DNA of 64,000 nucleotides. It comes from Candidatus Omnitrophota bacterium (GTDB taxonomy: Bacteria > Omnitrophota > Gorgyraeia > Tantalellales > Tantalellaceae). The stretch spans positions 29,549 through 93,548 of the forward strand of contig JADGBR010000003.1 in the NCBI GenBank assembly GCA_015231405.1, in the 5' to 3' direction. Under the pieces are notes generated by a model. That model was not told where the DNA came from. It did not search any database and saw nothing but the letters and a program-made list of their open reading frames with translations. The position numbers were made by a program, and so were the translations under genes. This document shows positions 45,772 through 62,626 of this stretch, piece by piece (positions within the stretch are counted from its first letter, which is position 1; every line of letters starts with the position of its first letter).

Positions 45772-45779
45772 AGGCCGCG

Positions 45780-46540: not shown

Positions 46541-46687
46541 ATGACGATCTATAAAATATTAGAAATAGCCGGAGGAGAAACAGGGCTAAAGATCCATTTG
46601 CCATACACTTTTTGCCAGAAGTTAAAATGGTTGTTCCTTGTACACTACTATTCAAATCAAAGTTTAAGGGAGACCGATAAGGGGTGA
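46541..46687 (+). CDS. Small 48-aa ORF, possibly a SpoVT/AbrB/MazE-like (swapped-hairpin) DNA-binding or antitoxin-like protein.
   Basis: SD aaaggaga lies 5 nt upstream of the ATG. The translation is MTIYKILEIAGGETGLKIHLPYTFCQKLKWLFLVHYYSNQSLRETDKG. The ORF sits in AT-rich DNA where random ORFs are short, and its stop overlaps the next ORF. The fold assignment is speculative. Confidence 0.4.
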   Translation: MTIYKILEIAGGETGLKIHLPYTFCQKLKWLFLVHYYSNQSLRETDKG

Positions 46688-46692
46688 TAAAT

Positions 46693-46887
46693 ATGATCAT
46701 GATCAAATGTCGCAAGTGCGGATCGATAAGTTACTCTTCATATGACGGGGCGAAATGTGCATGCGGGGGGGTAAGTGAAGACGCTGAGGAAAAAGCTGTT
46801 ACAAATACATTGCCGCTAAAGGGGGAAAAAAACATAGGAATATTTTTCGGCGAGGTATTGGCTTTGATCAATATGATCCTGATCTAG
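46693..46887 (+). CDS. Small zinc-ribbon protein (64 aa).
   Basis: SD aagggg lies 8 nt upstream. The translation is MIMIKCRKCGSISYSSYDGAKCACGG... with a CxxC-x12-CxC motif. It lies directly upstream of the nuclease gene. Confidence 0.45.
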   Translation: MIMIKCRKCGSISYSSYDGAKCACGGVSEDAEEKAVTNTLPLKGEKNIGIFFGEVLALINMILI

Positions 46888-46912
46888 CGACCGCGAAAGG
46901 ATCGATCAGGAT
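46876..46912 (+). promoter_or_regulatory. 9-bp stem hairpin (atcctgatc / gatcaggat, 19-nt loop) overlapping the SD and start codon of the DUF2779-like gene.
   Basis: Read from the sequence. The stem's 3' arm includes the first two bases of the ATG (46911-46913), and the loop contains the SD aaagga. Confidence 0.35.
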
Positions 46913-48449
46913 GTTCTTAGTGGCAACCGGATATGTTTTGTGGCATAGTATTGACATGTTCAAACATATCTCGGGGCGGGCCGGATCCCTCGGCGATATC
47001 CTTACAAAGTCCAGGTTCCTCAACGGCCTTCAATGTCCGCTTTTTCTTTGGACCCAGGCCCGTTTGCCTGAAAGGATACCGAGGCCTGACGCGGCAACGG
47101 CGAGGAGGTTTGATGCCGGGGACATGGTCGGCGAACTTGCCAAGAAAGTGTTCCCGGACGGCATCGACATTCCCCGCGATGATTTTTTCGGCAATATTGA
47201 GCTTGCCGGGAAAGCCATGAAAAAACGGCTGCCGATCTTTGAGGCGGGTCTTTTTGCCGGGAGGGTGTTTTCAAGGGTCGATATACTCGAGCCATCGGGA
47301 AAGACCGGATGGAACATTATCGAGGTTAAGAGCTCCGCGAGCGTCAAGGATCTTCATATAACAGACGTAGCGTTCCAGTACTTTTCGGCGATAGAAGCCG
47401 GTCTGTCGGTGAATAAGTGCTATCTAATGCATGTAAATACAGGGTATGTAAGGCGCGGGGATATATCGCCGTCGGAGTTTTTTGTCAGAGAAGATGTAAC
47501 GAGAAAAGCCGGGATCCGAGCCAGCGGCATCGGAAAAAAAGTTGGCGAGCTGCTTAAGGTCTTAGACGGCGACAGAATTCCGGAAAAAGACATAGGCGAG
47601 TGGTGCAGGTCGCCTTATCACTGTCCGATGATAAAAGAATGCTGGCGGTTCCTTCCGGATCATAGCGTCTTTGATCTTGCCGGGGCGGGAAAGAAGGCGT
47701 ATGAGCTTTATCGGGCTGGGATCCTCGCGATCACGGATATACCCGGCGGATATCCGCTTAAAAAGAATCAGATCATCCAACAAAAATGCGAGAGGGAAGG
47801 GCGTCCACACGCCGATATTAAGGCAATAAACGATTTCCTGTCGTTTTTGGAGTACCCGCTGCATTTCATGGATTTCGAGACGGTGAATCCGGCGGTGCCG
47901 CTTTACGAAGGGACAAGCCCTTTTGAGCAGATCCCTTTCCAGTTCTCTGTGTTCGTCGTCGAAAAAGAGGGAGCCCGGGCCGAAAGGAGGGATTTCCTGG
48001 CGGAAGGGATGATCGACCCCAGACCGGAATTCCTCCGTGAGCTTAAAAGCGCGTTAGGCCCGAGAGGGACAGTTGTGGCCTACAATAAATCGTTCGAGAA
48101 CGCCGTTCTCCGGAAGCTCGCGGTGATGTCGCCGGAAGACGCAGACTGGGTCCAGGACGTGATCTCAAGGACGGTAGATCTCCTAAGCCCGTTCAAGTCG
48201 TTCCAGTACTATCACCCTGGCCAGAAGGGAAAAGCTTCTATCAAGAATGTTCTTCCTGCGCTTACGGGTATAAGCTATGACGGCCTCGAAATATGTGAAG
48301 GGGGCGCCGCGTCCGACGCGTTCTTGGCGATCGTCGACGGAAGGCTCTCCGAAAAAGATAAGGCGAGAACACGCGCCGGTCTTATAACATACTGCGGGCA
48401 GGATGCCGAAGGGATGGTGCGGATCCTGGAAAAGCTTAAGAAAATTTAG
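46911..48449 (+). CDS. Cas4/RecB-like PD-(D/E)XK nuclease fused to an RNase-H-like/DEDD-type exonuclease (512 aa). It resembles the family I know as DUF2779.
   Basis: The N-terminus is RFLNGLQCPLFLW. The PD-(D/E)XK core IIEVKSS is followed by the Cys cluster CRSPYHCPMIKEC (a Cas4-like Fe-S site). In the C-terminal half, MDFET, YNKSFENAV and ASDAFLAI resemble DEDD exonuclease motifs. Confidence 0.55.
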   Translation: MFLVATGYVLWHSIDMFKHISGRAGSLGDILTKSRFLNGLQCPLFLWTQARLPERIPRPDAATARRFDAGDMVGELAKKVFPDGIDIPRDDFFGNIELAGKAMKKRLPIFEAGLFAGRVFSRVDILEPSGKTGWNIIEVKSSASVKDLHITDVAFQYFSAIEAGLSVNKCYLMHVNTGYVRRGDISPSEFFVREDVTRKAGIRASGIGKKVGELLKVLDGDRIPEKDIGEWCRSPYHCPMIKECWRFLPDHSVFDLAGAGKKAYELYRAGILAITDIPGGYPLKKNQIIQQKCEREGRPHADIKAINDFLSFLEYPLHFMDFETVNPAVPLYEGTSPFEQIPFQFSVFVVEKEGARAERRDFLAEGMIDPRPEFLRELKSALGPRGTVVAYNKSFENAVLRKLAVMSPEDADWVQDVISRTVDLLSPFKSFQYYHPGQKGKASIKNVLPALTGISYDGLEICEGGAASDAFLAIVDGRLSEKDKARTRAGLITYCGQDAEGMVRILEKLKKI

Positions 48450-48464
48450 AGGAGGATAACTGAT

Positions 48465-49664
48465 ATGGCGAATGAGTTGATCAAGTGCCCTGCCTGCGGG
48501 GCGGAGTTCGAATTATCGCAGGCGATAGCGCGGGATATGGAGACGGCATTCTCTAAGAAATACCAGGCCCAAATGAAAGAGTTCGAGGAGAAGGCGCGTC
48601 GTGAGATGAAAGAGCAGATGGAAACCGCGCAGAAGAAGTTCTCCGAAGATGCCCGTAAAAAGGCCGAAGCCGCTTTGAAGGGAGAGATCGACGAGCTTAA
48701 GGTCGAACTGGATTCGAAAACTAAAAGGCTCGATGAGAGCCGGAGAGAGGAGATAGCCCTCCGTAAGAGGCAGCGCGAACTCGAGGAGAAGGAGAAGGCT
48801 CTCGAGCTTGAGACCGCGAGAAGGATCGACGCGGAAAGGAAGAAGATACAGGAGGATACGCTTAAGAATTCGGAGGAGCGCTATAGGCTGAAAGACGCCG
48901 AAAAGGATAAACAGCTCTCCGATATGAAAAAGCAGATAGACGAACTTAAGAGGAAGGCCGAGATAGCTTCGCAGCAGAACCAGGGTGAGGTGCTTGAGCT
49001 CGAGCTTGAGGCAATGCTTAAGGATGAGTTCCAGTTCGATGATATCGAGCCAGTCGGAAAAGGGCAGAAGGGCGGGGACATTATCCAGACAGTAAAAACG
49101 CAGTCCGGACGTGTTTGCGGGAAGATACTCTGGGAAACTAAGAGGACGAAAGCATGGTCCGACACCTGGATACAGAAACTCAAGGACGATCAGAGGGACA
49201 CAAAAGCGGATATCGCCGTTCTTGTCTCGGAAAGCCTGCCGAAAGGGATGAGCCAGTTCAGGGTTATAGACGGCGTCTGGGTCGCGGCTTTATCATCGTC
49301 ATTAAGCCTGGCGCTCGCGCTCAGGGTTGTCCTCACGCAGGTGGCGAGGGAAAGGCAGCTTGAGACCGGGAAGAAAGAGAAGATGGAGCTGGTTTACAAT
49401 TATCTTACGGGCGTCGAGTTCCGTAACAGGGTCGAGGCAATAGTCGAATCTTTTCTGGCAATGAAACATGGCCTCGATAGGGAAAGGACGGCGATGAACA
49501 AGATCTGGGATAAAAGGGAAAAACAGATACAGAGAGTGCTCCTCAATATCGGCGGAATGCAGGGCGATATCGAGGGCTTATCGGGGATGACCCTCCCCAG
49601 GATCGACGCGCTGGAACTGCCTGAGGGGGATACGGAGGCTGAGGAAAATGACGTGGTCAGCTGA
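48465..49664 (+). CDS. DUF2130-like protein (399 aa) with an N-terminal CxxC knuckle, a long Lys/Glu-rich coiled coil and a C-terminal PD-(D/E)XK-like core.
   Basis: SD ggagga upstream. The N-terminus is MANELIKCPACGAEFELS. About 200 aa of heptad-like EEKA/RKK repeats follow. The C-terminus carries GDIIQ...ILWETKRTK (D...ExK). Confidence 0.55.
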   Translation: MANELIKCPACGAEFELSQAIARDMETAFSKKYQAQMKEFEEKARREMKEQMETAQKKFSEDARKKAEAALKGEIDELKVELDSKTKRLDESRREEIALRKRQRELEEKEKALELETARRIDAERKKIQEDTLKNSEERYRLKDAEKDKQLSDMKKQIDELKRKAEIASQQNQGEVLELELEAMLKDEFQFDDIEPVGKGQKGGDIIQTVKTQSGRVCGKILWETKRTKAWSDTWIQKLKDDQRDTKADIAVLVSESLPKGMSQFRVIDGVWVAALSSSLSLALALRVVLTQVARERQLETGKKEKMELVYNYLTGVEFRNRVEAIVESFLAMKHGLDRERTAMNKIWDKREKQIQRVLLNIGGMQGDIEGLSGMTLPRIDALELPEGDTEAEENDVVS

Positions 49665-50316
49665 TCAGGGGATATGCTGTTTTATCTCTCTTCCCGACAG
49701 CCGGAGTACGGAATTTATCGGTGAGCTCATCAGGCATTTCAGCGATGATGATCATGATCTCATACTGGGTTTCGTGGGTTTCAATAACCTGGAGGAGAAG
49801 GAATATAAAAAATATGAGGTTGAGATACTGAAGAGGAGCGCGGGGTATAAATTCGGCTATGTCGGATTTGATCCCGGTATTAAGGTTCTGTTCGAGAGAA
49901 TGATGAAGGGGCTTTTCACCCCCGTAATAAATGGGGTGAAGGCCTATCGCATGAGCGGGGAGATGCGGGATCATTTTATCCGGAACTATTTGGCTAAACT
50001 AAAACGCGCGCGTGGGACTATCTGGGACCTGGGTGTTTACAGGAACGACAGCCCGGTCATGGAATGCCATGACGATCTTACCGCTATAACATTTTACGAT
50101 GAAAATGAGATCAATGCCGGGTTCCTGGATAAGATGATCGACCGGAACATATTGGCGAACTACGCTATCACGGAAAAAGCGCCGGAAAATTTCATATGCC
50201 CCGGATGCGGAAGACCGAGCATCGATCAGTACCTCGTAGTAGCGAAAAACTTCACGCCGTCTGGTGACAATTTCGTTTGCGGGAGATGCTATAATAAAAT
50301 ATCCGTGACAATATAA
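49648..50316 (+). CDS. Hypothetical protein (222 aa) with a C-terminal zinc ribbon; it overlaps the upstream gene by 17 nt.
   Basis: The ATG at 49648 lies inside the end of the DUF2130-like gene, which suggests translational coupling. The C-terminus is CPGCGRPS...CGRCYNK. Confidence 0.6.
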   Translation: MTWSADQGICCFISLPDSRSTEFIGELIRHFSDDDHDLILGFVGFNNLEEKEYKKYEVEILKRSAGYKFGYVGFDPGIKVLFERMMKGLFTPVINGVKAYRMSGEMRDHFIRNYLAKLKRARGTIWDLGVYRNDSPVMECHDDLTAITFYDENEINAGFLDKMIDRNILANYAITEKAPENFICPGCGRPSIDQYLVVAKNFTPSGDNFVCGRCYNKISVTI

Positions 50317-50499
50317 CGGATATCTCCAAGATATCGTTCACCGTGCCAGAAATACTCAGTTCTTTCCTGGGTCTCATAGCTAACGTCTAAAAAAAGTCTT
50401 AGATGTTACAAATCAATTGACTAAAATGCAAAAATAAGTTAGAATAATAAAATCCAAGAAAGCATAAAATGCAAAAAAGATAAATATCCCCGACTTATT

Positions 50500-52704
50500 A
50501 TGCCTACACGCAAAATTCTTTCGTTGATCATTGTATGTTCGGTTATATCAACCGACATTAGCTGGTGTTCGCCGGATCGTATGGAGTTGGCGACCAGGTC
50601 GATCTTTGGTCAGGATAAGGTCCGTGACAAAGGTATGATAAAGTATTATCTGGCCAGGCTCTTTTGGCCCGGGAGGTTCTTGTTGCCGATACCCGGAGAT
50701 GTAAATATAAGAGTGCCGAACGAAGATATTGGTATTGTTTTGGAATTCTCGCGCGAAAATGAGAAAGTGTTTTCCGGGTTGATAAATATCCCTTTCGCGC
50801 GGCATATTCCATGTAAAGTGGGACATTTTCAATATTACGCGTACATTACACCTGACACCTCCGGTAAAGCGCCCGAGATAACAATTTACGATATCGATGA
50901 ATTTGAGGCCGTTGAGAGACGTGGTTCTCTCGGGCATTATAGCGATCTATCGGTTCAGGCCGAAACCGTTCACGGTGAAATCGGATCGGAAGTAATGAGA
51001 ATAGAGTCGGACGGGGCTTATGAGTTGCGCATTAAATACAGCCCCGGAGGGAATAAGGAAGAAAGGGTAACTGATCTCCGGGAATTGGCGGTATCGCGCG
51101 TGGGTGAGGGATCCGGACAGAGGGAACTCGAGAATTGGGATAATTTTACGCTCATCCCGCATCTTAAAACTTTGTGGACCGGTTCCACGGAGATCATAAA
51201 GGCTAGAATCAGCAAGGCTATCCGTGTGATCCAGATGGAGTTCATGGGTATGCTCGTGACAACGAGCAAAGAACGTTTAGAGAGTATAGACAGGGTCATC
51301 ATCGATAACTATATCCCGAAGGGTGATAAGCCTTTCCTTGTCGCGGATACGGCAGTAAGTATGGGGTTCACCAGCGTCGATCTCGCGACGGCTTTGGAAA
51401 AAGCGGGAAAAAATTTCCGTATAATATCTTCTGACCGCATGATCAAGATAAGGTTAGTCGCGAGGAATGGCTGTTGGGCCATGTTCTATTCGAGCGGAAA
51501 ACTTTTAGCCGTCAGATATAAGGGGTCGGTGTACAGGGAAGGAAAGTTCGACGATCTGCCGGTCACCGTGATAGATGGCTTGTATGAATCATATAACAGC
51601 GGCCATTTCAGCGAATTTTCGAGAAGCTCTCCCGAAGTCGAAGAGTATATGAGGCAACATCCCGAAAGGTTGTATCAAGCTGAGATCGACGCGATGGACC
51701 CCAACCTTGATGAGAATAAATATGAGGTTGTAAGATGTTTTAATCTTTTTCAGTATTTCAATAATACCGACAGGCTGAAGATCGTGCGGAATTTGGGGCG
51801 TACGGTAAAAGAAGGAGGATATCTCATCGTCGGTTTTGGCAGCGAATACATACAATACGCGGTTTGGCGAAAAAACGGGAATAGGCTTTTAAGGGTAGAC
51901 GCTGACAGGGAAGGAGCCGACTATCTATACGGGCTTATAAATAACCCGGGGATGTTCAGGGATATCGATCTTGCCGACCTTTCAGGGAATCTGACCCCGG
52001 GAGAAGAAACGAGGGTGTACATGGATGAGAGGTTTAATAGAGCCGTCTTGGGAGCGGGTAAAACCGCGCGGGAGATCGCCGGAGCGCTGATGAGCATGGC
52101 GATCGATCTTAGTGAGGGAGAGAAAGCTCTCCTCGCGCTTGACGAAGATCTGGGAAAAGAAGGCACTGTAAATCTCATAAGGTCCATTGAAGAAGAGCTT
52201 TGCGGGCTTAAAACGGATGTTGACTGGAAGGAAATATTCGGAAGGATCACTATCATAAGAGGAAGAGGCTCCGCCCTTGTTAGAGATGTATTATCTCTTA
52301 CTGATGAGAGTGCCGGGAAAGATAAGATAGAATTGTCGAACGTTATGTTGATAGCCGGGTCGAACGGTGAGATCGCGAGCGCTTCCGGCGCTTTTCGGGG
52401 TGAGGCCATCGTAACGCTCATAGATGACGCCAACCTCGATATGATGAGTTATTATCCTTTCGGCGAGATCGTCCTTTTCACTGTCGGCAAAGCGCTTTTA
52501 AGGCGCGGTATCGGGGCATACAGCGAGGAACAGCTGATAAGTTTATGCAAGGCGATGAGTATTGAAATGCCAGAGGGCGATGACTGCCGTAAATACGTTA
52601 CATCAAATGTCGCCAAGATCACGCTTCGGCGCTGTGAAATATTCGAATATGACGAACAACGAGCTATATTCGCTAATATGAGCAGCGTGATACGATCACT
52701 ATAA
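50500..52704 (+). CDS. Hypothetical protein (734 aa) with a central Rossmann-fold, SAM-methyltransferase-like segment.
   Basis: FLVADTAVSMGFTSVDLA resembles motif I, and VVRCFNLFQYF...LGRTVKEGGYLIVGFG resembles motif II/III of class I methyltransferases. I recognised no other family, and the start codon is uncertain. Confidence 0.55.
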   Translation: MPTRKILSLIIVCSVISTDISWCSPDRMELATRSIFGQDKVRDKGMIKYYLARLFWPGRFLLPIPGDVNIRVPNEDIGIVLEFSRENEKVFSGLINIPFARHIPCKVGHFQYYAYITPDTSGKAPEITIYDIDEFEAVERRGSLGHYSDLSVQAETVHGEIGSEVMRIESDGAYELRIKYSPGGNKEERVTDLRELAVSRVGEGSGQRELENWDNFTLIPHLKTLWTGSTEIIKARISKAIRVIQMEFMGMLVTTSKERLESIDRVIIDNYIPKGDKPFLVADTAVSMGFTSVDLATALEKAGKNFRIISSDRMIKIRLVARNGCWAMFYSSGKLLAVRYKGSVYREGKFDDLPVTVIDGLYESYNSGHFSEFSRSSPEVEEYMRQHPERLYQAEIDAMDPNLDENKYEVVRCFNLFQYFNNTDRLKIVRNLGRTVKEGGYLIVGFGSEYIQYAVWRKNGNRLLRVDADREGADYLYGLINNPGMFRDIDLADLSGNLTPGEETRVYMDERFNRAVLGAGKTAREIAGALMSMAIDLSEGEKALLALDEDLGKEGTVNLIRSIEEELCGLKTDVDWKEIFGRITIIRGRGSALVRDVLSLTDESAGKDKIELSNVMLIAGSNGEIASASGAFRGEAIVTLIDDANLDMMSYYPFGEIVLFTVGKALLRRGIGAYSEEQLISLCKAMSIEMPEGDDCRKYVTSNVAKITLRRCEIFEYDEQRAIFANMSSVIRSL

Positions 52705-53012
52705 TTATAGTTACCATAATGTCCATTTCGTGCGGTGGGACGGCAAGGTGCCGTACGAAGAATCCCATCTCCATCATGACAGCACCAAGGCTATCACAAC
52801 GTTATAGATAAAAAAGCAAGAAATAAGCTATTTAATATATTTACGCTATGGTGTATACTTGTAAATAGCAAAAGCGAATTTTGTCGTAACGTTAAACAAG
52901 AAATTAGCCTTTAAACAAATCCGTACCAAAAAATGCGAATATAAATACGAACGATTTGTTATATTAACTATAGCTAAAGAATTTTAAAAAGGATAAAAAA
53001 AGGGGGGAGATA

Positions 53013-56000
53013 ATGAATAAGCATCTTGTTTGTTTGAAAGGTATGGTAATTATTTTTACGTTGTTGGTATCAGCTACATTAGGGGTAGCATTTGCTGAGA
53101 ACGATATTCTTCAGGATTTTAAGAGTAATCTTGAAACTATTCATGGCATGAAGATAGACTTGGATAAAATCGTGGTCAATCCGGATTTTCCGGGTGGGAT
53201 ATTGGTCAGTTATTCGGACGAGATGACCAATTGGGCGATAGACGCCGTTTATTTGGCTGACGGGAAACTGGGACAGGTGCGTTTCGGGTCGCTGAATTCC
53301 AAAATTGCCATCGAGGTTACACAGTCGACATGGGCGCTCGATACCTGGAACGAGACAGTTCAGGAAGGGGAGTTTTACAGGGGGGATCCAGGGAAAAACA
53401 CCGTTACATTCGGAGTAGACCCGCAATCCGGGGAAATACGATTTTATTATAGCGCGCAATTCGGGTACGCTCCGGAGAAAATAGCGTGGGCAAGCCCGCT
53501 ACGGCTGGATGACCTGAGAGAGTTATTGGGGAGATTTTATCAAGTCAACGATATGGCGGAAGAGCTGACAGTGAAGTTGCGACAGTATCAGGCAGAGTTG
53601 TTGACGCTTGCCCCGGTAGAAGATAAGCTTGATCGGGCAAGCGAGGAGTATACGGTAATGTATAACGCGTATATCCGCTATGACGGGTCCCTTAGAGTGC
53701 AGTTCCCTGTAACTGATATCCAGTTGGCTGCCGCATGGCATCTGCCTAAAACAAAACGGCAAGAACTTATAAACCGCATCAATGCCGCGCTTGTCAATGA
53801 TCCTATCGACATAGAGGAACTCAAATTGCTTCTTAACGAAAATGTCATGGGAATAGAGGAATCCGTGGATTCATTTAACGGTATCCGAGATATGTTCTTA
53901 TCCGGGATCGAAGAGGTGAGACTGGCGATAAGGGGTATGGACGAAGTCAACGATATGGCCGCTGGTTTCAAGAAGGAAATAGAAGCGCTTTACGGAAGAG
54001 ATATTGACGGGCAGGCGATAAATATTGTCGATATAACAGAAACCGCCGAGGGTATTGAAGCTATGATCACGGTAACGGAAGATGATCTTTCTCTGCGTTT
54101 TAAGGTGGTTGTTAAAGGCGGGTCAATAACAGAGATAACATCCGAAAACAGCCACGGTGTAAGTTTTATGGATATCTGCATGTTTATCAGGCAGAGCGTG
54201 GCTGAAGGTATGCTCATAGATACCAAAGAAGCACGTATAATCGGTATAGGGGTAACTCCTGCCGGTGATTATGAGTTCCTGATCGAGGCCGGTGATTTAG
54301 AAGTTAAATGCCTATACAACGACGCGCCGAATGACAAATATATCATAACCTCCGCGTTGAGCAGATCGACCGGCGTGGATTATCTCGCAAAAGGAACTGA
54401 ATACTTTAAGGAAGTGTTCAACGGTGTGAATGGTCTGGCGGTCAGAGCTCATATGTTCCCGGGATACCCACAGATGGCACTTTTGTTCCAAGGCCCCAAA
54501 GGCGAGTCTTCTATAGGGATATGGGTCATGCTGGACTCTAAGGGCGGCGCGTACTGCACGGACGACCGCGACGGGAGGACATTGCCGGATAAGGCCCTAT
54601 CCATAAGAAAAGAGGTGGCCGACGGGTTAAAGATCGATATCAACGAAGTGCAGATAAACGGCATGGATGTGATGGCGTCCGGGGAATACATATTTTATGT
54701 GGATATGGCCGACGGGGAATACTCCTTTACCTATATATGGTCCGCCGACGGGTCGGGGATAAGGCTTGAATCCGTGCGCAATAACATTAGCGGCTTACAT
54801 GCAAGTGTAATATACGAAAATATCCGGATGGTTAACGGCTATGATCATCTTATGCCCATGCGTATCATAGATTCTGAGAATGGCGGTATACTTGTCTATA
54901 TGAATTATTCGTTCATACCTGGAGATGACCCTGCCGGACCCAATCACATCGAGTTGACCGGGCTCTATTACCCCGGGGGGGCAACTTTGCGCATTCTCGG
55001 AGCGGTGGACCCGTTAAAACTGGCTACGGGCGGATATTGCATACCGGAGATGCTTTTAGCGCGAAATGCCGTTCGGGAGATGTTAAATATTGATCCATCC
55101 GGAATAGCTATAGGTGAAGTAGTCCAGGGCCCCGAGGATACTTACCGTATATCGGTGAAACCTGATGGTGCGGGTTTCCCGGAGAGTATTATTGTGACCG
55201 TTAAGGATGGGGCTATCGAAGATATAAATAACGATGAAAAATACGGCGTAAGTTTTCCCGAAAAATGCCTGTTCATCAGAGAGCAGGTAGCCGCGGGCCT
55301 ATCCATAGGTATAGATAAGGTGTCTATAAACGGCATAGGAATGACCGCGGCGGGAGATTATGAGCTCCTGGCCGACGCCAATGACCTGGAAGTGAAATGC
55401 CTATACAACGACGCGCCGAATGACAGATATATCATAACTTCCGCGTTGAGCAGATCGACCGGCGTGGATTATCTCGCGAAGGGGACTGATTACTTTAAGG
55501 AAGTGTTCAACGGTGTGAATGGGCTGGCGGTCAGAGCTCATATGTTCGCCGGAACTGATCAGATGGCACTTATATTCCAAGGCCCCAAAGGCGAGTCTCC
55601 TATCGGGATATGGGTAGTGCTAGACTCTAAGGGCGGCGCGTACTGCACGGACGACCGCGACGGGAGGACAATGCCGGATAAGGCCCTATCCATAAGAAAA
55701 GAGGTGGCCGACGGGCTGATGATGGATATCAAAGAGGTGTATATCAACGGTATGAACGTCAAGTACGGGGGAGATCATGAGTTTTTAGTGGATGCCGGCG
55801 AGTATTCGTTTGTTTATATTTGGCCGGGTGACGGGTCAGGAATAAGGATGGTAGAAGCGTTTAACAACCGTACCGGAAAAGACCTTCTGAGTAAGGCTGT
55901 TGAAGCGTTGAGCGACGTATTCAACCCGACAAGCTATGTGTTGTCGTACTGGGGAAGCGGAGAGGGTTGCATGGGCTTTGCGTTCAGGCTCCCTGACGGG

Positions 56001-59000
56001 CCTGGAGTGAAGCTGAACGTTAGCGTAGAGACCGGTGAGCTTATGCCCAATTTTAGCGAGATGGTAAATGTCGTAATGGCCGCGCGAAATGAAGTGGCAC
56101 AGTCCATGGGAGATGAAATAGCGGATGTTCACGTGGACGGAGCGGCTGAGGAGTATGACCATGAAGCCGGCGTATATGTCGTTACCAAACTCACAATAAC
56201 GGCAAAGGAATACGTCTTTACGTATGTTGACAAGAAAGACGGTCAAGGAATGAGGATAGAAGCGGTGTATAACAAGAATACCGGCCTGGAACTACTGGGT
56301 AAGGCTATTGAACAGCTGAAGAACTTAATGAACCCGACAAGTTATGAGCTTTCATATTGGGGCACGGGAGAGGGTTGCATGGGCTTCGCGTTCATGCTCC
56401 CTGACGGCCCCAAAGTGAAGTTGAATATAAACGCCGAGACCGGCGAGCTTATGCCTGACCTTGACAATATGGCCTCGGTGATCATGGGGGTAAGAGAGGA
56501 AGTCGCGAAGCTTGCGGAAATTGACATTTCTCTAACCCATGTCGACGGAGCGGTCGAGAACTATGATGATGTAACCCGTCTTTACGTTGTCAGCAATCTG
56601 ACCATAACAACGGATAAATATATTTTTACTTACGAGATCGCCCAAGACGGGTCCGGGATGAGACTGGTAGAACGCGTCGACCGGCCGGCCCCGTTGTCGC
56701 AGGTGAACGCCGGTAAAGAAGCTTTGGCGGCGCTCCTCCGCTCGCCGAACGGCGCCGAAGATATAGTTTTCATCGGCACGGACCCGGATAACGCCTTGAA
56801 GCTAAAATATCAGTATGCTCAAGTGACTGTTTATCTTAAGGTCATTCCGGAAGAAGGAACATATACTAAAAATATAAAGTACAGGGTAGATTTTCCCGCC
56901 GGCATGAGAGAATCGATAGAAGCCGCTTATGCCTCCGCGATAGTGCGCCTTGAGGACGTTACTTACTGGGGGATCACAGGCATGAACGGGGATCTCTCCG
57001 AAGATCTCTGGATACCGGGATATTCTGTCACGATCAACGCGGAAAAGGGAGCGATAGTATATAATTGCGGGATCCGGAACGATATGACCGTTGATCGGGA
57101 AGCGTCGAATTATGTCTTTACGAGGCCTGAAAACGCGGAGGATTCCGTGATATTAACTTTCAAGGGAGAGGAAATAATGGCATGGGGCAGGATCCGGCTA
57201 CTGCCATTAACTCTCTCGGATAAAGAAACCGGGAAGACACTGGTCTCATTCCGTCATGTATTTGACAATAGCGGCGCGGTGGCATGGACTATCGCCGAAT
57301 ACTACCAGGGCGAGAACGTAATACTTACGCGCAGCGAAAAAGGCGCGATCGATCCCGTGGACATAGGGAGATTAGGCGAGAATTGCGCCTACGCGCTCCT
57401 GGCCATAGAAAAAATGGCGTATAACACTCATCCAGACCTATCTTCATTCGAGCTATTGAACGTGAAGGAAGAAGGTGACAATGTCATTGTCTCTCTCAGA
57501 ATGTCTCTGGGCAGGGATAGCGTCTTCGGGACATTTTCGGTGAGTAAGATCAGCCTGGTAGTCACTCCGGCAGATAATTATCCGGACTTGAAATACGGCA
57601 TTGATTACGTATACGACGAAACCGGCAGGGTCACGATCACGAGGCTGACGACGCCTCAAGGCGAAGAACTTACCATAATAGGTAAGCTTGAACCTTTGGT
57701 CCTTGTCAGGGGAGAATACCCGGTCTCAAAAATCCTTGAAGCAAGGCGTGTTCTGGCCGAAGAGCTCAGCCAGAACGCGAGCTCGATAAATATCGGCGAA
57801 GTCTGGGAATTTGGCGGTAGAACCCTCGTGAGTCTTGTGCCGACCGCCATTAGTATCGGTTCAAATTTGATCGTCGGGGTAAAGGATACGCCTTCGGAGG
57901 ATACCGACGGGGACGGAAAGCTTGACGCCAGCGAAGACCTGGACGGCGACTGGAAGCTTGACGTGAACGAGGACCTTGACGGCGACGGGAATCTGGACAT
58001 AGACGAGCAGGCCCTCGCTGCAGCGGAGTTCTCGACATGGACGGTGAATGGGCGGTTCGACGTGGATAATGATGGCCGTATGGATATTAACGAGGACATT
58101 GACGGCGACGGGCATCTGGACTTATATGAAGATTTAGACGATGACGGCATCCTGGATATAGAAGAGGATGTTAACGGTGACGATGTTCTTAATGGTCCCG
58201 GGATAAAGGCCGAGATTTTGGATCCTTCTGTCCTGTCCAGGGCCATTAAAATCGCCAGGGAACGCGCGAAGAGCCTGAACATAGAATTGGGTAAGATCCA
58301 GAAAATTGAAACGATAGGGCAAGACGAGGTACATATATGTTATGACTCCGATCTCGGCGATGTCATTACCAATGTGCGCCTCGACGGTAACGGCCTGGCG
58401 ATCCTCGCGCGATTCGATCTAAGGCTGAATGGAATGAACCGGACAATATATTTCGAGGAGGTTAACGGAAAAATGCTGGCCCAGGGGATAGCGGACTCCT
58501 CGAGCAATAAAACGCTGGTGAAATTAAAGTATCAATACTTCTCGAATACCGGAGAGATCTACCTTACGGAATTGATCTTCAGGGACGGGAAAAGGCTTGT
58601 CTTCCATGGCGAGGTCGATCCCTTCGCCCTGGCCAGGGGCGAATATCCGCTGGATGCCATTAAGGTAGCGCTCAGAAAGGTCGCGGAAACCATCGGCCAT
58701 ACGGACGCGAGCACTATACAGATAAAGGCATGGAGCGATAATAACGGTGAATTTGACCTGGAACTGGTGACGACCGAGAACGCGGCCCATATGAATTTCG
58801 CGGTAAAAATCACGAAGAGCGATAACGGCGGGTATGAGGTAGTGTTCCCCGACAAAATGATAGAGGCCATAGACCGGACGCGCGGACTTTGCCTATGGCA
58901 GGTCCTTGATCCTGTAAGAGTGCATGACATAAGGATACGTGAGAGCGAGGCGTATGTCTGGTGGGAAACGAAGTATGGCGATAAGGATGTCAATCTGACG

Positions 59001-61934
59001 GTAACTTACGATATCGCTCATGATACCGGGCTTGTCGATCTCATCGCGAGTATAGACGCGAAAGGGTTATTAAACGCGTACGATTTCATGAATACGCTTC
59101 TTGCCGCGTACGGGCCTTTCGGGGCGGTACCCGGAACGAGGTTATACACGCTCATTAACACGATAAACCAGACCGACGCGTACGGGAATGAGCTGGGAGC
59201 TGAGGAGTATAAGGAAAAGCTGCTGGCAGCCGCCGGGGCGTTCGGAGACCGGGACCTTGTTGTCCGTGAGATGAGCGTCATTGTCACGGACGCGAAGCTT
59301 TTCAATTACAACGCCGTGATCACGTATGAACAGCATGAGTCTGGCAGGCTTGTCCCTGACAGGATAGAGGATGGCCATGGCAATGTTCTTGTCAGTTTCA
59401 GCTACGAGATGGTAGAGAAGTGGGATAAAGAAAACAACGCGTACGTGTGGGATATGATTACCACCGTGACATTCAATAACGCGAGCCCTTATGCCGATCC
59501 TTGTGACTCCGGGCCTATTACCGTGGCGGGAGTGCCGGAGGGTATTATGAACCTTGTGACCAATAAACTCACTGATACCTGGCTATTCTGGGTATTTGCC
59601 AGGAACGAGGTGGATGATCTGTATCAGTCATATTTCCTGAGGGAGCCGAACGTCGAGATGGTGTCCTACTGGGTGGACGCGGCGCGTGAACGCGGCCTAA
59701 CACGCCTCTTATCCGACCTTGGGACCGGCTTGGATAATATCAGATCGCTTGCGGGCGTAAGCGCTAGAGGCGAGGATATTGACGGTGACGGGAATCTTGA
59801 CATAGACGAGCAGGCCCTAGCTGCCGCGGAGTTCTCGACATGGACGGCGAACGGGCGGTTCGACGCGGATAATGACGGCAATATGGACAACAACGAGGAC
59901 ATTGACGGCGACGGGCATTTAGACGCCATGAATGAGGATATCGACGGAGACAGGAATTTCGATACGGGTGAGGATACTAACCATAACGGCGTTCTTGATC
60001 CGGGAGAGGATATCGACGGGGACGGAGTGCTTGACCTGTCCGAGGACCTGGACGGTGACGGGAATCTTGACATAGACGAGCAGGCCCTAGCAGCTTCGGT
60101 GTTCTCTACATGGACGGCTAACGGGAAATTCGATGTGGATAATGACGGCATAACGGACTCCAACGAGGACATTGACGCTGACGGGCATTTAGACGCCGTG
60201 AATGAGGATATCGACGGCGATCTCCATTTCGATTCCGGGGAATACGCTCAGCCAAATGCCGGATGGCCGTGTACGGACCGAGACGCGCTCATGATAGTGG
60301 CGCATTTCAGCGATATTATGGACAAAGGGGCAAGAGACCTCTCCGGGGACAATATCGTCGATAACTGCGACCTTACGATCTCAGGGCTCGTTTATGAGCT
60401 TGCTATCCACTACCGTGACTCTCTTAGCGCGGATATGCTCCGCATATTCGACGCCGACATGAACGGCGCGGTCGAGCGCACCGATGCGGACCTGGCCGCT
60501 CTTAAGATAGCTTACGGGGACGGAAGAACATTAGGTAAGATAAAGGAATTCGCGGACATTTTGGCGGAGGATCCTCTGGGCGGGCTGGATAAAGAGAGGG
60601 CGGGCGAGATATATGATCTGGCAATAAAATATTCATCGATCCTGGATGAAAGCGTCCTCGCCAAACTCGACCGTGACGGCGACCGGTGTATTACGGAAGC
60701 TGACAAAGAACGGTTTATTTCAGTTATAGACCGGGCCGTAGAAGAGATCGCTCTCGTCAGGGAGGGAACGTCCCGTATATCGGCAGATCAGCTGGACCTT
60801 AACGGTGACGGAGGCGTTGATATGTACGATTACAACAATGCGCAAATGGTCCGCAAATACGCCGAGGTATATTTTAATTATTTGGATGAGGAAACCGCGG
60901 CGCTATTGACGGCGAACCCGCTGAACGTTGTGCTTGAAAGGATCAAGATGGCGCTTGCCGGGATCAGGACGGTCGTCGATTATGTGAAAAAGATGACTGA
61001 CGTGCTGTCCGGTGTGAACGGGGACATAGCTTCCGTTGTCGGTGAGAACGGGTTCATTGATAAGTTATACGAACTCGCTATCCGGTACGAGGGTTATCTT
61101 CCGAGGGAATCATTCCAGGCCCTGAACCGCGACGGGAATACGGTCCTGGATATTACGGATAAAGAAGCCGTCATCGCCGAGATAAACTCGATGGCCGGCC
61201 AGCGCGACGCAAAAAAGTCTTTCGACGTGACGAGGGCCGATGGGACGAAGGAAACATATACAATGGCGACGGTCGGTGAGTCCACGAAAACCCTTATAAC
61301 GCAGAAGGTCAATACTGACGGGACATATGTCGTTTTTGAAACGTATCACAAGGGGACCGGCACCGATAACCTGAGCCTGAAATACAGTTCGGTCGATAAT
61401 AAATTACTGGCTCAGTATAAGAAATATTCTAACGGCAGGGTATCGGGAGCCCTTTACACCGACCCGGATGAGTTCGGGAACGTCTATTACCACTTCGCAA
61501 ACGAGGATTATTACTCTACCTCGGAAAAAGACGCGCCTTTTGTGGGCAGGATCGATATGATACAGAGGGCCTCCGCCGATGAGGCGGGCGCCATATCGTA
61601 CAAGATCTACTACAAAGGCGACAGCGGCGTGGCCAGATCGGTTTACGCTTATTCGAAATTGTCCTTCAGCGGAACTGTTTACATGTATGAATATGACGAA
61701 AATAACAAGCTCGTCAAAGTGAAAGATTTCCTGAACAATAAAGAGCTTGAGATCGGAGCGGCGGATATGGCGACATCTTCGGCACAACTCGATAAAAAGA
61801 AAGATATGGTCCAGCAGGTAATGGAGGATGAGATGAACGCCATGAAAACCGTCCAGAACATACTTGTCAAGAACAAGGCTTCGGAAAACCTGAAAGCCCA
61901 GCTGATGAACGTCAAAAGCAAGGAAGGGATATGA
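53013..61934 (+). CDS. Giant (2973 aa) secreted protein with duplicated modules, Asp-rich DxDGD calcium-binding repeats (thrombospondin-type-3-like) and dockerin-like EF-hand motifs.
   Basis: SD ggggggag lies upstream of the ATG at 53013. The signal peptide is MVIIFTLLVSATLGVAFA. The ORF runs to the TGA at 61932-61934. Motifs are given in the sub-features. Confidence 0.85.
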   Translation: MNKHLVCLKGMVIIFTLLVSATLGVAFAENDILQDFKSNLETIHGMKIDLDKIVVNPDFPGGILVSYSDEMTNWAIDAVYLADGKLGQVRFGSLNSKIAIEVTQSTWALDTWNETVQEGEFYRGDPGKNTVTFGVDPQSGEIRFYYSAQFGYAPEKIAWASPLRLDDLRELLGRFYQVNDMAEELTVKLRQYQAELLTLAPVEDKLDRASEEYTVMYNAYIRYDGSLRVQFPVTDIQLAAAWHLPKTKRQELINRINAALVNDPIDIEELKLLLNENVMGIEESVDSFNGIRDMFLSGIEEVRLAIRGMDEVNDMAAGFKKEIEALYGRDIDGQAINIVDITETAEGIEAMITVTEDDLSLRFKVVVKGGSITEITSENSHGVSFMDICMFIRQSVAEGMLIDTKEARIIGIGVTPAGDYEFLIEAGDLEVKCLYNDAPNDKYIITSALSRSTGVDYLAKGTEYFKEVFNGVNGLAVRAHMFPGYPQMALLFQGPKGESSIGIWVMLDSKGGAYCTDDRDGRTLPDKALSIRKEVADGLKIDINEVQINGMDVMASGEYIFYVDMADGEYSFTYIWSADGSGIRLESVRNNISGLHASVIYENIRMVNGYDHLMPMRIIDSENGGILVYMNYSFIPGDDPAGPNHIELTGLYYPGGATLRILGAVDPLKLATGGYCIPEMLLARNAVREMLNIDPSGIAIGEVVQGPEDTYRISVKPDGAGFPESIIVTVKDGAIEDINNDEKYGVSFPEKCLFIREQVAAGLSIGIDKVSINGIGMTAAGDYELLADANDLEVKCLYNDAPNDRYIITSALSRSTGVDYLAKGTDYFKEVFNGVNGLAVRAHMFAGTDQMALIFQGPKGESPIGIWVVLDSKGGAYCTDDRDGRTMPDKALSIRKEVADGLMMDIKEVYINGMNVKYGGDHEFLVDAGEYSFVYIWPGDGSGIRMVEAFNNRTGKDLLSKAVEALSDVFNPTSYVLSYWGSGEGCMGFAFRLPDGPGVKLNVSVETGELMPNFSEMVNVVMAARNEVAQSMGDEIADVHVDGAAEEYDHEAGVYVVTKLTITAKEYVFTYVDKKDGQGMRIEAVYNKNTGLELLGKAIEQLKNLMNPTSYELSYWGTGEGCMGFAFMLPDGPKVKLNINAETGELMPDLDNMASVIMGVREEVAKLAEIDISLTHVDGAVENYDDVTRLYVVSNLTITTDKYIFTYEIAQDGSGMRLVERVDRPAPLSQVNAGKEALAALLRSPNGAEDIVFIGTDPDNALKLKYQYAQVTVYLKVIPEEGTYTKNIKYRVDFPAGMRESIEAAYASAIVRLEDVTYWGITGMNGDLSEDLWIPGYSVTINAEKGAIVYNCGIRNDMTVDREASNYVFTRPENAEDSVILTFKGEEIMAWGRIRLLPLTLSDKETGKTLVSFRHVFDNSGAVAWTIAEYYQGENVILTRSEKGAIDPVDIGRLGENCAYALLAIEKMAYNTHPDLSSFELLNVKEEGDNVIVSLRMSLGRDSVFGTFSVSKISLVVTPADNYPDLKYGIDYVYDETGRVTITRLTTPQGEELTIIGKLEPLVLVRGEYPVSKILEARRVLAEELSQNASSINIGEVWEFGGRTLVSLVPTAISIGSNLIVGVKDTPSEDTDGDGKLDASEDLDGDWKLDVNEDLDGDGNLDIDEQALAAAEFSTWTVNGRFDVDNDGRMDINEDIDGDGHLDLYEDLDDDGILDIEEDVNGDDVLNGPGIKAEILDPSVLSRAIKIARERAKSLNIELGKIQKIETIGQDEVHICYDSDLGDVITNVRLDGNGLAILARFDLRLNGMNRTIYFEEVNGKMLAQGIADSSSNKTLVKLKYQYFSNTGEIYLTELIFRDGKRLVFHGEVDPFALARGEYPLDAIKVALRKVAETIGHTDASTIQIKAWSDNNGEFDLELVTTENAAHMNFAVKITKSDNGGYEVVFPDKMIEAIDRTRGLCLWQVLDPVRVHDIRIRESEAYVWWETKYGDKDVNLTVTYDIAHDTGLVDLIASIDAKGLLNAYDFMNTLLAAYGPFGAVPGTRLYTLINTINQTDAYGNELGAEEYKEKLLAAAGAFGDRDLVVREMSVIVTDAKLFNYNAVITYEQHESGRLVPDRIEDGHGNVLVSFSYEMVEKWDKENNAYVWDMITTVTFNNASPYADPCDSGPITVAGVPEGIMNLVTNKLTDTWLFWVFARNEVDDLYQSYFLREPNVEMVSYWVDAARERGLTRLLSDLGTGLDNIRSLAGVSARGEDIDGDGNLDIDEQALAAAEFSTWTANGRFDADNDGNMDNNEDIDGDGHLDAMNEDIDGDRNFDTGEDTNHNGVLDPGEDIDGDGVLDLSEDLDGDGNLDIDEQALAASVFSTWTANGKFDVDNDGITDSNEDIDADGHLDAVNEDIDGDLHFDSGEYAQPNAGWPCTDRDALMIVAHFSDIMDKGARDLSGDNIVDNCDLTISGLVYELAIHYRDSLSADMLRIFDADMNGAVERTDADLAALKIAYGDGRTLGKIKEFADILAEDPLGGLDKERAGEIYDLAIKYSSILDESVLAKLDRDGDRCITEADKERFISVIDRAVEEIALVREGTSRISADQLDLNGDGGVDMYDYNNAQMVRKYAEVYFNYLDEETAALLTANPLNVVLERIKMALAGIRTVVDYVKKMTDVLSGVNGDIASVVGENGFIDKLYELAIRYEGYLPRESFQALNRDGNTVLDITDKEAVIAEINSMAGQRDAKKSFDVTRADGTKETYTMATVGESTKTLITQKVNTDGTYVVFETYHKGTGTDNLSLKYSSVDNKLLAQYKKYSNGRVSGALYTDPDEFGNVYYHFANEDYYSTSEKDAPFVGRIDMIQRASADEAGAISYKIYYKGDSGVARSVYAYSKLSFSGTVYMYEYDENNKLVKVKDFLNNKELEIGAADMATSSAQLDKKKDMVQQVMEDEMNAMKTVQNILVKNKASENLKAQLMNVKSKEGI
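54150..54790 (+). repeat. Module copy A of a recent intragenic duplication.
   Basis: About 340 nt (54295-54630) are roughly 93% identical to 55384-55720. The encoded peptide is EVKCLYNDAPNDKYIITSALSRSTGVDYLAKG...CTDDRDGRTLPDKALSIRKEVADGL. Confidence 0.8.
55230..55860 (+). repeat. Module copy B of the same duplication.
   Basis: See copy A. The encoded peptide is EVKCLYNDAPNDRYIITSALSRSTGVDYLAKG...CTDDRDGRTMPDKALSIRKEVADGL. Confidence 0.8.
57895..58200 (+). repeat. Asp-rich calcium-binding repeat block 1 (DxDxDG, TSP3/EF-hand-like).
   Basis: The peptide is DTDGDGKLDASEDLDGDWKLDVNEDLDGDGNLDIDEQALAAAEFSTWTVNGRFDVDNDGRMDINEDIDGDGHLD. The 150-nt unit at 57975-58125 recurs at 59776-59925 and 60049-60200. 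Confidence 0.7.
59770..60240 (+). repeat. Asp-rich calcium-binding repeat block 2, holding two further copies of the 150-nt unit.
   Basis: The peptides EDIDGDGNLDIDEQALAAAEFSTWTANGRFDADNDGNMD... and DLDGDGNLDIDEQALAASVFSTWTANGKFDVDNDGITD... show high nucleotide identity between copies. Confidence 0.7.
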
Positions 61935-61940
61935 TCCGTC

Positions 61941-61982
61941 CGGAACGGTTATCCCCGGGGTTACCCGGGGATAACCGTTCCG
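61941..61982 (+). terminator. GC-rich hairpin immediately after the stop of the 2973-aa gene: a 19-bp stem (cggaacggttatccccggg / cccggggataaccgttccg) with a 4-nt loop.
   Basis: Read from the sequence. It lies 7 nt after the TGA at 61932-61934. No clear U-tract follows, so it could equally be a stabilising or processing stem. Confidence 0.5.
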
Positions 61983-62104
61983 CGACTCCCCGGACAAGAC
62001 CCCTAAATGGATAGTGCAACCATTTGGCTGATTTTGATCACGCTATCGGCGAGGTGTGGACATCCTCTTCAAGCCTTCCCCCGGGAATTTCTTAACGCCT
62101 TCCA

Positions 62105-62225
62105 CATGCCGTTTTTAGACCTTGCGCATTCACCCTCCTCCGCCCTGAACCACTCGCTTTGCTGCTCGGGTACAGGGCTTCGGAGGGTGAGACGCAAGAA
62201 AGGGGGTTGTCATAAAAACGGCATG
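62105..62225 (+). ncRNA. Candidate structured RNA element (or leader RNA) of unknown family.
   Basis: The nested helices are catgccgttttt (62105-62116) / aaaaacggcatg (62214-62225), then caccctcc (62131-62138) / ggagggtg (62182-62189), then gccctg (62142-62147) / cagggc (62173-62178). The element lies in a 640-nt stretch with no convincing ORF. Confidence 0.25.
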
Positions 62226-62626
62226 TTAAAGGCTAAAATTCCCCAAGGGGCCCCTTTGCTTAAAGAGGATATCCACACCTTGACCCGTCCCCGTCATGGA
62301 TCAGTCCATGAATTTTCAGGTTATTCAACGAGGGGTGAAGGCGTGAAGGAGATGGGGTTCTTCGTACGGCACTTTGCCGTCCTAACATCCAAAGTAGTCT
62401 TGTGCGTGGACCTTGCAAGCATTACTATGAAGACCACATACCGAACTAGAAGTTTGCAAAGTGCCGGTAGAAGGTTCCCATCTCCTTCCCGCCATCGCGA
62501 CGAGAAGCAAGGAACTCTTAGAAAGTCAGCATGCTTTTCACACTATCATCTAAATGTTATTTCCCGCCGCAGGTTTTTAAAGCATGCTATAATTATTACC
62601 GGAGAATGTTCAACCGGGAGATAAAA

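Follow-up and report, generated by a model that had tools for sequence, protein, structure and literature searches.

A predicted secreted protein of an Omnitrophota bacterium composed of double PepSY-like modules and EF-hand-type acidic loops

We analyzed a 64,000-nucleotide (nt) stretch of contig JADGBR010000003.1 from a metagenome-assembled genome (MAG) of Candidatus Omnitrophica, hereafter called the window, with the gene HQL30_02960 as the subject. The open reading frame (ORF) remains open for 8,919 nt without interruption, and its product is identical over the full length (100%) to the NCBI entry 'MAG: hypothetical protein HQL30_02960 [Candidatus Omnitrophica bacterium]', which is encoded on a 178-kb contig. 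The N-terminal half of the protein is an array of a double PepSY-like module, which is followed, among regions of other kinds, by two arrays of acidic loops of the EF-hand type and four repeats with paired loops near the C-terminus (Table 1). An initial annotation made from the DNA sequence had described a secreted giant calcium-binding protein built by very recent duplications. The ORF, the nucleotide repeats, and the GC-rich hairpin downstream that it listed are all present, while the word giant is relative, since the ORF is the smallest of four very large ones in the window. For the most part the initial description is accurate, but it exaggerates the similarity and the recency of the repeats, and its functional reading is half right.

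The start codon is preceded by a strong Shine-Dalgarno-like site, GGGGGGAG. The predicted signal peptide is of the typical n-h-c type (MNKHLVCLKGMVIIFTLLVSATLGVAFA/EN), and most of the homologues described below also carry one at the N-terminus; the secretion claimed initially is thus kept as a prediction, with inspection as its only basis in the protein itself. The hairpin after the stop codon has a perfect stem of about 19–21 bp and a loop of 4 nt, and folding of the surrounding 81 nt gives −47 kcal/mol (z = −5.7). Because a T-run is absent, the hairpin is not a canonical intrinsic terminator.

Six copies of a module of about 137 residues occupy positions 337–455, 456–595, 682–818, 819–956, 957–1092, and 1093–1227, the second and third being separated by an insert. 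They were found with a locally iterated hidden Markov model (HMM), and the domain E-values of the six copies against this family HMM range from 8e-9 to 3e-34. Membership of the module family, as defined here, requires that the family HMM find two or more modules in tandem, and HQL30_02960 belongs to the family. No Pfam family recurs among 79 module copies searched; the PepSY model matches one of the 79 (E = 0.039), and in HQL30_02960 PepSY (PF03413) reaches 15 bits, with a cut-off of 24.

An AlphaFold model of the module was built from the alignment of the 79 copies, with a predicted local distance difference test score (pLDDT) of 95.5 and a predicted template modeling score (pTM) of 0.87. The modeled chain consists of a helix and three strands, followed by a helix and four strands (alpha-beta3 + alpha-beta4). 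The best PDB match of the model found by Foldseek is the C-terminal PepSY domains of YpeB (5BOI, probability 0.98, E = 5.7e-3), and the BLIP-like DUF2874 protein 3DUE is also in the list. The global template modeling score (TM-score) between the model and 5BOI is only 0.32, probably due to a difference in the orientation of the two halves. When the module profile was compared with the PDB, the best match was a PepSY propeptide (9VY3, E = 0.016). The module is therefore predicted to adopt a PepSY/BLIP-like fold of helices and beta-sheets. Both halves end in V-[DN]-x-x-T-G, and hhalign of the two halves detected no homology past this terminal motif. The copies found by the HMM, together with the AlphaFold, Foldseek, and profile results, identify the N-terminal half as repeated copies of a double PepSY-like module not described before. 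The helix followed by a sheet of three or four strands is common to the PepSY domains of YpeB (5BOI), the propeptides of M4 peptidases, and 3DUE, and the tandem arrangement is the same as in YpeB. Unlike those proteins, the module has a sequence below the Pfam cut-off, its halves are fused as a fixed 137-residue unit that is repeated up to 11 times, and no peptidase or lytic enzyme is associated with it.

The two acidic arrays consist of 12-residue loops. The consensus of the 14 array loops is D-[IL]-D-G-D-G-N-L-D-I-[ND]-E. All 14 have D1, D9, and E12; D3, D5, and a hydrophobic position 8 are each found in 13, and G6 in 11. The loops abut without helices, save for a conserved 17-residue spacer, EQALAAAEFSTWT[AV]NG[RK]F; array 1 has one such helix-like spacer of 17 residues (EQALAAAEFSTWTVNGRF), and 36% of its residues are Asp or Glu. 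Throughout the protein, 19 twelve-residue loops match the EF-hand loop pattern (ligands at 1, 3, 5, and 12, Gly in position 6, and position 8 hydrophobic); one of them, at residue 2442, is an exact match to PS00018. A strict form of the pattern gives 16 matches, compared with 0.12 on average (maximum 2) when the whole protein was shuffled 1000 times. With shuffles preserving the composition of each acidic region, the comparison is 6 strict matches versus 0.10.

A profile of three array units matches EF-hand proteins in the PDB, namely a CDPK (E = 0.027), S100-A1, lanmodulin, and berovin; a cellulosomal dockerin (2Y3N_B, E = 0.21) is also among the matches, which include no thrombospondin. Near the C-terminus, 5 of the 8 loops in the four repeats are intact; like dockerin loops, all five have Asp at position 12, and a helix-loop-helix context is plausible from the aligned sequences. 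The profile of these repeats has 132 PDB matches at E ≤ 10 (best E = 7e-4), and nearly all of the best 60 of the 132 are calmodulin-type EF-hand proteins.

Pfam was run on the whole protein and on ten segments at E ≤ 10. Dockerin_1 (PF00404) gave 17.5 bits at residues ~2553–2607 (cut-off 22.9), EF-hand_6 and EF-hand_7 gave 15.6 bits each (cut-offs 25 and 30), EF-hand_5 gave 12.4 (25.9), and EF-hand_1 gave 11.8 (25.4). The NCBIfam models with faint matches are CglD (18 bits), the sole hint for array 2, and the calcium-binding effector XopAW (19 bits). From the loop statistics and the PDB profile matches, calcium-type loops are supported at the level of the motif and of weak profiles, not at the level of a family. 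The calcium binding predicted initially is retained to that extent, whereas every Pfam EF-hand and Dockerin score is sub-threshold. The loops share with EF-hands and type I dockerins a length of 12 residues with D1, D/N3, D/N5, G6, hydrophobic position 8, and acidic position 12; the C-terminal repeats also have paired loops and, plausibly, a helix on both sides of the loop. They differ in that the array loops abut without helices, several loops are degenerate, and the Pfam scores are below the cut-offs. The earlier label of dockerin-like EF-hands is accordingly narrowed to EF-hand-type loops, and for the C-terminal repeats the word dockerin would denote a resemblance.

The contiguous D-x-D-x-D-G-x-x-D-x-x-[DE] runs without flanking helices are similar to those of thrombospondin type 3 repeats, to which the initial annotation had compared them, and of bacterial TSP3 repeats (PF18884) such as those in OmpA-like proteins and CglD. 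However, neither TSP_3 (PF02412) nor TSP3_bac (PF18884) matched the isolated segments at E ≤ 10, the PDB profile matches lack thrombospondins as noted, and the Cys pairs that form disulfides within repeats of the eukaryotic type are missing, with no Cys in array 1 and one in array 2. The comparison with thrombospondin type 3 was therefore abandoned.

A separate observation concerns the acidic unit at 59754–60272 (residues 2248–2420). Its best PDB sequence matches are the lanthanide-binding 8FNS and lanmodulin 6MI5 (E ~0.06), with D1, D3, D5, G6, D9, and E12 of the loops in common. Pro at position 2 of the aligned lanmodulin loops is missing in the HQL30_02960 loops.

Table 1. Features of HQL30_02960 and its immediate flanks in the window
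Feature	Residues	Position	Strand	Basis or remark
Shine-Dalgarno-like site		53002..53009	+	3 nt 5′ of ATG; read off the sequence
Complete ORF with stop codon	1–2973	53013..61934	+	2973 residues; NCBI HQL30_02960, Candidatus Omnitrophica MAG
Predicted Sec signal peptide	1–28	53013..53096	+	Ends AFA/EN; inspection and hydrophobic window at residues 3–21
N-terminal region	29–336	53097..54020	+	No Pfam, NCBIfam, PDB, or remote-homologue match
Six ~137-residue double PepSY-like modules and 86-residue insert (residues 596–681)	337–1227	54021..56693	+	Local iterated HMM
Putative gene-conversion tract, copy 1	424–543	54282..54641	+	Low dS versus copy 2, saturated flanks
Putative gene-conversion tract, copy 2	787–906	55371..55730	+	Same dS comparison
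Middle region 1	1228–1628	56694..57896	+	YD-like hairpin and G-x-L-E-P...RGEYP linker, then PepSY-like unit
Acidic loop array 1	1629–1727	57897..58193	+	Six abutting 12-residue D-x-D-G-D-G-x-L-D-x-x-E loops
Middle region 2	1728–2247	58194..59753	+	No Pfam, NCBIfam, PDB, or remote-homologue match
Acidic loop array 2	2248–2415	59754..60257	+	Two unit copies, about ten loops
Four loop-helix-loop-helix repeats, EF-hand-pair/dockerin-like	~2440–2732	60330..61208	+	Alignment of the repeats
Beta-hairpin-rich YD-like region	2741–2920	61233..61772	+	Sequence pattern and strands in a low-confidence model; no family match
Lys-rich C-terminal helix	2921–2973	61773..61931	+	pLDDT 52–58, the highest part of a weak model
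Perfect GC-rich hairpin		61941..61982	+	7 nt past the stop codon, no T-tract; sequence and folding

The age of the repeats was examined at the nucleotide level. As the initial annotation had claimed, there are two modules of about 640 nt with a core of about 340 nt; they are 79% identical over 632 aligned columns, and the best window of 340 columns reaches 92.4% (initially put at about 93%). BLASTN aligns 54236–54764 with 55325–55847 at 83.5% over 533 nt. Three 150-nt DxDGD units, which had been called near-identical, are less similar than that, with pairwise identities of 88.5%, 78.0%, and 87.1%. Not on the initial list are another pair of repeats (55834–56047 versus 56241–56455), 76% identical, a tandem periodicity of 36 nt at 57906–58007, and, in the protein, the six copies of the ~137-residue module.

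The copies were aligned by codon, and synonymous (dS) and nonsynonymous (dN) distances were calculated by the Nei-Gojobori method. The core (residues 424–543 versus 787–906) has 88% amino acid identity, dS of 0.245, and dN of 0.071. In contrast, the left flank (304–408 versus 659–771) has 32% identity, dS of 1.65, and dN of 0.72, and the right flank (559–660 versus 922–1020) also has 32% identity, with saturated dS (proportion of synonymous differences, pS, 0.80) and dN of 0.81. Thus, modules of about 360 codons are saturated at synonymous sites except in a core of about 120 codons (about 360 nt). The pairing of 137-residue modules at 905–1106 and 1035–1242 gives 48% identity, dS of 1.64, and dN of 0.45, and the three pairs of DxDGD units give 72–79% identity, dS of 0.69, 0.76, and 1.41, and dN of 0.12–0.18. 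The dN/dS ratios of the repeat copies (~0.13–0.29) indicate purifying selection.

The core begins within one module copy and ends within the next, across the boundary at residues 455/456, and this position indicates a recombination tract rather than a domain under special constraint. It appears that the core of about 360 nt was homogenized later by gene conversion. The distances of the DxDGD units suggest that their nucleotide similarity reflects mostly purifying selection on a motif of few codons, not recency. The best reading of these distances is that the repeats are old internal duplications maintained by purifying selection, plus one later gene-conversion tract. Very recent duplication, as proposed initially, does not agree with a dS of 0.7–1.4 for the DxDGD units and saturated module flanks, and the gene conversion offered with it applies to the single core (dS 0.25) and not to the rest of the repeats. 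Nielsen & Lui conclude for their collection as a whole that nucleotide tandems in long Omnitrophota genes have mostly faded, with the domain architecture retained (10.64898/2026.06.07.730766), and our result agrees with that conclusion.

With the whole protein as a query, HQL30_02960 itself was the sole match among 5.8 billion clustered proteins, and queries with the C-terminal part and with the module profile found nothing beyond the protein itself in the same database; no close relative was found in ~15 billion proteins. An exhaustive HMMER search with residues 426–1625 against 1.84 billion cluster representatives gave 25 remote homologues (E = 5e-63 to 2e-4, identity 24–47%). All 25 match via residues ~805–1195, and only the module of about 137 residues is in common. 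The larger homologues have 2–11 modules. One homologue is annotated as Candidatus Omnitrophica (MCX5678621.1), and the others come from metagenome assemblies. The tails after the modules vary: P0004, P0005, and P0007 have longer YD-like tails, and other tails are EF-hand/dockerin-like. P0003 has EF-hand domains over the Pfam cut-offs (EF-hand_1, 37 bits), together with Dockerin_1 at 20.1 bits and PepSY at 21.3 bits (cut-offs 22.9 and 24). Long helix-less loop arrays are found only in HQL30_02960 within the module family.

The gene neighborhoods of the homologues are not conserved overall. At three loci, a FecR/TPR gene lies directly upstream of the module gene (L083, 3120–10660; L084, 495–7439; L087, 5479–10311, minus strand). 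L083 and L084 both carry P0003, so that the three loci represent two distinct members of the family. An extracytoplasmic function (ECF) sigma factor gene precedes the FecR/TPR gene in L083 and L087, while the L084 sequence ends there. This arrangement suggests envelope-stress-type regulation of a subgroup; it is absent in the present window and at P0010 and P0007. Many members (P0002, P0005, P0006, P0009, P0010, P0014, P0018, P0019, P0025, P0026, and others) carry [FY]-x-x-[QE]-M-[AVG] 15–25 residues ahead of a basic C-terminus, and this motif could be a lineage-specific sorting signal. The end of HQL30_02960 (...AQLMNVKSKEGI) fits the motif only loosely.

A PDB sequence search with the full protein gave nothing at E ≤ 1. 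The element in middle region 1 recurs at residues 646–703 and 1843–1921 in a self-comparison: a YD-like hairpin and a G-x-[LV]-[DE]-P...RGEYP linker precede PepSY-like units, and this arrangement is weakly matched in the homologues. The sole Pfam match of the whole protein is RHS_repeat (PF05593) at residues 1531–1551, with 17.4 bits and a cut-off of 22. The protein contains one YDxxG motif.

Upstream of HQL30_02960, three ORFs larger than it lie on the plus strand (3–42865). The first has at least 3881 residues, runs past the start of the window, and matches phosphomannose isomerase, ROK, and PRK; the second (3265 residues) matches PTA_PTB and GNAT; the third (6951 residues) matches AAA_5, NHL, and other beta-propeller repeats. 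In appearance, all three resemble the giant multi-enzyme proteins published for this phylum (10.1101/2023.11.21.568195; 10.64898/2026.06.07.730766). A phmmer comparison of HQL30_02960 with every other ORF of the window gave no match, and the upstream giants are therefore unrelated to it in sequence. Between the giants and the gene (43011–52704) lie five ORFs, mostly of unknown function, that include DUF6973 (753 residues), DUF2779 (512 residues), and DUF2130 (399 residues) proteins, an ORF of 222 residues without a match, and a protein of 734 residues whose N-terminus is hydrophobic and which weakly matches CheR/SAM-methyltransferase. A gap of 1.6 kb in this stretch (45273–46910) is apparently non-coding. 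A neighboring deaminase searched in genome contigs had only generic homologues in many phyla and gave no context.

An element of about 45 nt (GCAARGTGCCGTACGAAGAAYCCCATCTCC...) occurs three times in the window, at 52738–52786 (plus), 62334–62382 (minus), and 62456–62496 (plus), always in the spacers flanking HQL30_02960. The outer pair, 86% complementary, lies on either side of the ORF as an inverted repeat of 49 nt. The element could be a dispersed intergenic repeat, a site of regulation, or a remnant of past mobility, and it was absent from the viral contigs searched. The spacer of ~540 nt 3′ of the gene (61990–62530) contains two very long hairpins (~62047–62290 and ~62330–62500), folds at −231 kcal/mol (z = −9.3), and is MITE-like or palindromic-element-like. 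An ORF of 205 residues (62007–62624) overlaps this hairpin-rich spacer and looks spurious. Rfam gave no family in the window or in this spacer, and a tRNA search of the window found none.

The closest published counterparts are the Dockerin-type giants of Omnitrophota (West-Roberts et al. 2023, 10.1101/2023.11.21.568195) and the dockerin and bacterial TSP3 architecture cluster of Nielsen & Lui 2026 (10.64898/2026.06.07.730766); in these two reports, large Omnitrophota proteins bearing dockerin, EF-hand, or TSP3 domains are proposed to act in attachment. HQL30_02960 shares with the Dockerin-type giants the phylum (by the NCBI source name), a predicted extracellular location (from its signal peptide), a large repetitive protein rich in calcium loops, and neighboring multi-enzyme ORFs of very large size; as for the bulk of the Nielsen & Lui collection, its repeats are old and not recent tandem expansions. 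On the other hand, it is ~10–20 times shorter, with 2,973 residues compared with at least 30,000 for the three examples named by West-Roberts et al. and at least 10,000 for the Nielsen & Lui catalogue. Unlike the giants, it has no C-terminal transmembrane anchor and no Dockerin_1, TSP3_bac, discoidin, GNAT, C39, or SecA-like domain at the Pfam threshold. Its main building block is the PepSY-like module, while the word PepSY appears nowhere in the West-Roberts paper and is not mentioned in the available part of Nielsen & Lui. Given its length and the missing Pfam Dockerin and TSP3 domains, HQL30_02960 is related in kind to the Dockerin-type giants but is not a member of that group.

Calcium-stiffened repeat adhesins of Gram-negative bacteria, such as RTX adhesins of the LapA/MpIBP type, combine a long stalk, made up of small domains in repeat, with calcium-binding elements and separate distal domains; they carry a C-terminal type I secretion signal, RTX nonapeptides, and Ig-like repeats. 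The overall logic of stalk, calcium-binding elements, and distal domains would be similar in HQL30_02960. The predicted N-terminal Sec signal, the absence of RTX nonapeptides, and the PepSY-like repeats set it apart from them.

We propose, with a probability of about 0.55, that HQL30_02960 is a large structural protein of the extracellular space or the cell envelope of this Omnitrophota bacterium, in the form of a calcium-stiffened stalk or an adhesin-like scaffold. The Sec signal peptide would export the protein, and the six tandem modules together with further PepSY-like units would form an elongated stalk. The two acidic arrays and the four C-terminal EF-hand-pair (dockerin-like) repeats would bind Ca2+, so that the distal part would fold or become stiffer, possibly with a surface for calcium-dependent interaction. 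The YD-like beta region would make up the terminal end together with the basic helix at the C-terminus. The ORF, the layout of its repeats, the module family with its fold, and the pattern of the loops are established; export past the inner membrane, metal binding, and the role as a stalk or adhesin are predictions.

Several points weigh against this proposal. No curated family model in Pfam or NCBIfam reaches its cut-off anywhere in the protein, and a single-sequence AlphaFold prediction of residues 2230–2973 was unusable (pLDDT 35). About 1,400 dark residues (29–336, 1228–1628, and 1728–2247) could leave room for enzymatic or toxic activity. Localization beyond the periplasm is presumed, and we infer metal binding from the loop motif alone. 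Neither a secretion system nor an anchor motif lies in the window, and a cohesin or any other partner is absent from it as well. The gene is known from one assembly: the 5.8-billion-protein collection has no second copy, a look-up of the exact protein returned no encoding contig on record, and an exact 30-mer of the gene was unmatched in metagenome contigs of the Joint Genome Institute (JGI).

The last point, together with the origin of the contig from a MAG and repeats inside the ORF that reach 92% identity over 340 nt, raises the question of whether the repeats misled a short-read assembler, or the gene is decaying, so that the ORF as written is not real. We reject this as improbable because the frame is open over 8,919 nt, dN is well under dS between repeat copies, and the module family is recovered from other, independent assemblies; the repeats are also never identical, their differences are spread through the copies, and the module boundaries are regular. 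An RHS/YD-type polymorphic toxin that delivers a C-terminal effector to neighboring cells was considered from the weak RHS_repeat match at residues 1531–1551, the YD-like beta-hairpin region near the C-terminus, and the longer YD-like tails of P0004, P0005, and P0007. This was likewise rejected and is the most improbable of the readings considered, since the repeat score (17.4 bits) is below the 22-bit cut-off with a single YDxxG motif, an RHS core and a recognizable toxin domain are lacking, and no plausible immunity gene follows, the 205-residue ORF lying in the hairpin-rich non-coding stretch.

Two other possibilities, each unlikely but less so than the former two, concern what the loops and the modules may bind. 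The C-terminal repeats might dock in a calcium-dependent manner on a cohesin scaffold or a surface anchor encoded elsewhere in the genome, as in cellulosomes; this was the second function offered in the initial annotation. Dockerin_1 is indeed the best Pfam match of residues ~2553–2607 (E = 0.0047), the order loop-helix-loop-helix with Asp at loop position 12 is that of dockerins, dockerin 2Y3N_B is among the PDB matches of the acidic-unit profile, P0003 has its Dockerin_1 match of 20.1 bits, and dockerin-bearing giants are described in Omnitrophota (10.1101/2023.11.21.568195). However, the Dockerin_1 scores stay under the Pfam cut-off of 22.9 bits, the repeats are closer to calmodulin-type EF-hands (E = 7e-4), 3 of the 8 loops are degenerate, and no ORF of the 64-kb window has a cohesin match at E ≤ 0.01. 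The spacing of loops would also be different, being ~33–35 residues in type I dockerins and 38–42 residues in the C-terminal repeats. Alternatively, the modules might form an array that binds lytic enzymes or peptidases and holds them inactive or in place, in a host-dependent or predatory lifestyle. Inhibitory roles of the PepSY/BLIP-like fold are described, with YpeB holding SleB and PepSY propeptides doing likewise for M4 peptidases (PMC13556211, PMC2954215), and Omnitrophota giant proteins are implicated in cell-wall degradation (10.1101/2023.11.21.568195). Such an array is consistent with the resemblance of the fold to YpeB, with the PepSY propeptide matched by the profile, and with 3DUE, a BLIP-like DUF2874 protein, among the fold matches. 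A common fold, however, does not establish a common function; the Pfam PepSY score is 15 compared with 24 bits, neither the protein nor the adjoining ORFs contain a peptidase or peptidoglycan hydrolase, and the homologue neighborhoods are not conserved around such enzymes. The structural protein with a stalk of modules and calcium-type loops remains our preferred reading.

A broader and more tentative suggestion is that HQL30_02960 and its 25 relatives are an unrecognized family of secreted fibers made from the new double PepSY-like module, perhaps restricted to Omnitrophota, perhaps with a C-terminal sorting motif of its own and, in one subgroup, with ECF-sigma/FecR control. HQL30_02960 would be the member to which helix-less EF-type loop arrays were added for calcium-dependent attachment to a host or prey. 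As a remote variant of this suggestion, the loops may prefer a metal other than calcium, lanmodulin being among their best PDB sequence matches.

Omnitrophota bacteria are ultra-small; most are uncultured, and a host-dependent life is probable. A role in attaching to other cells and degrading them is presumed for their very large proteins, whose components largely lack annotation. The gene described here yields a well-defined building block, the 137-residue double PepSY-like module, which has a confident model, goes undetected by Pfam, and is found again in a limited group of secreted proteins. It also illustrates clearly how EF-hand-type loops can be joined end to end with no helices between them, and it is a worked case where repeat similarity at the nucleotide level reflects purifying selection and local gene conversion rather than recent expansion. 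The novelty is moderate: the module family and the unusual arrangement of loops are new, whereas the class of large proteins has already been reported for Omnitrophota. These results do not overturn current views but refine the annotation of one dark protein family.

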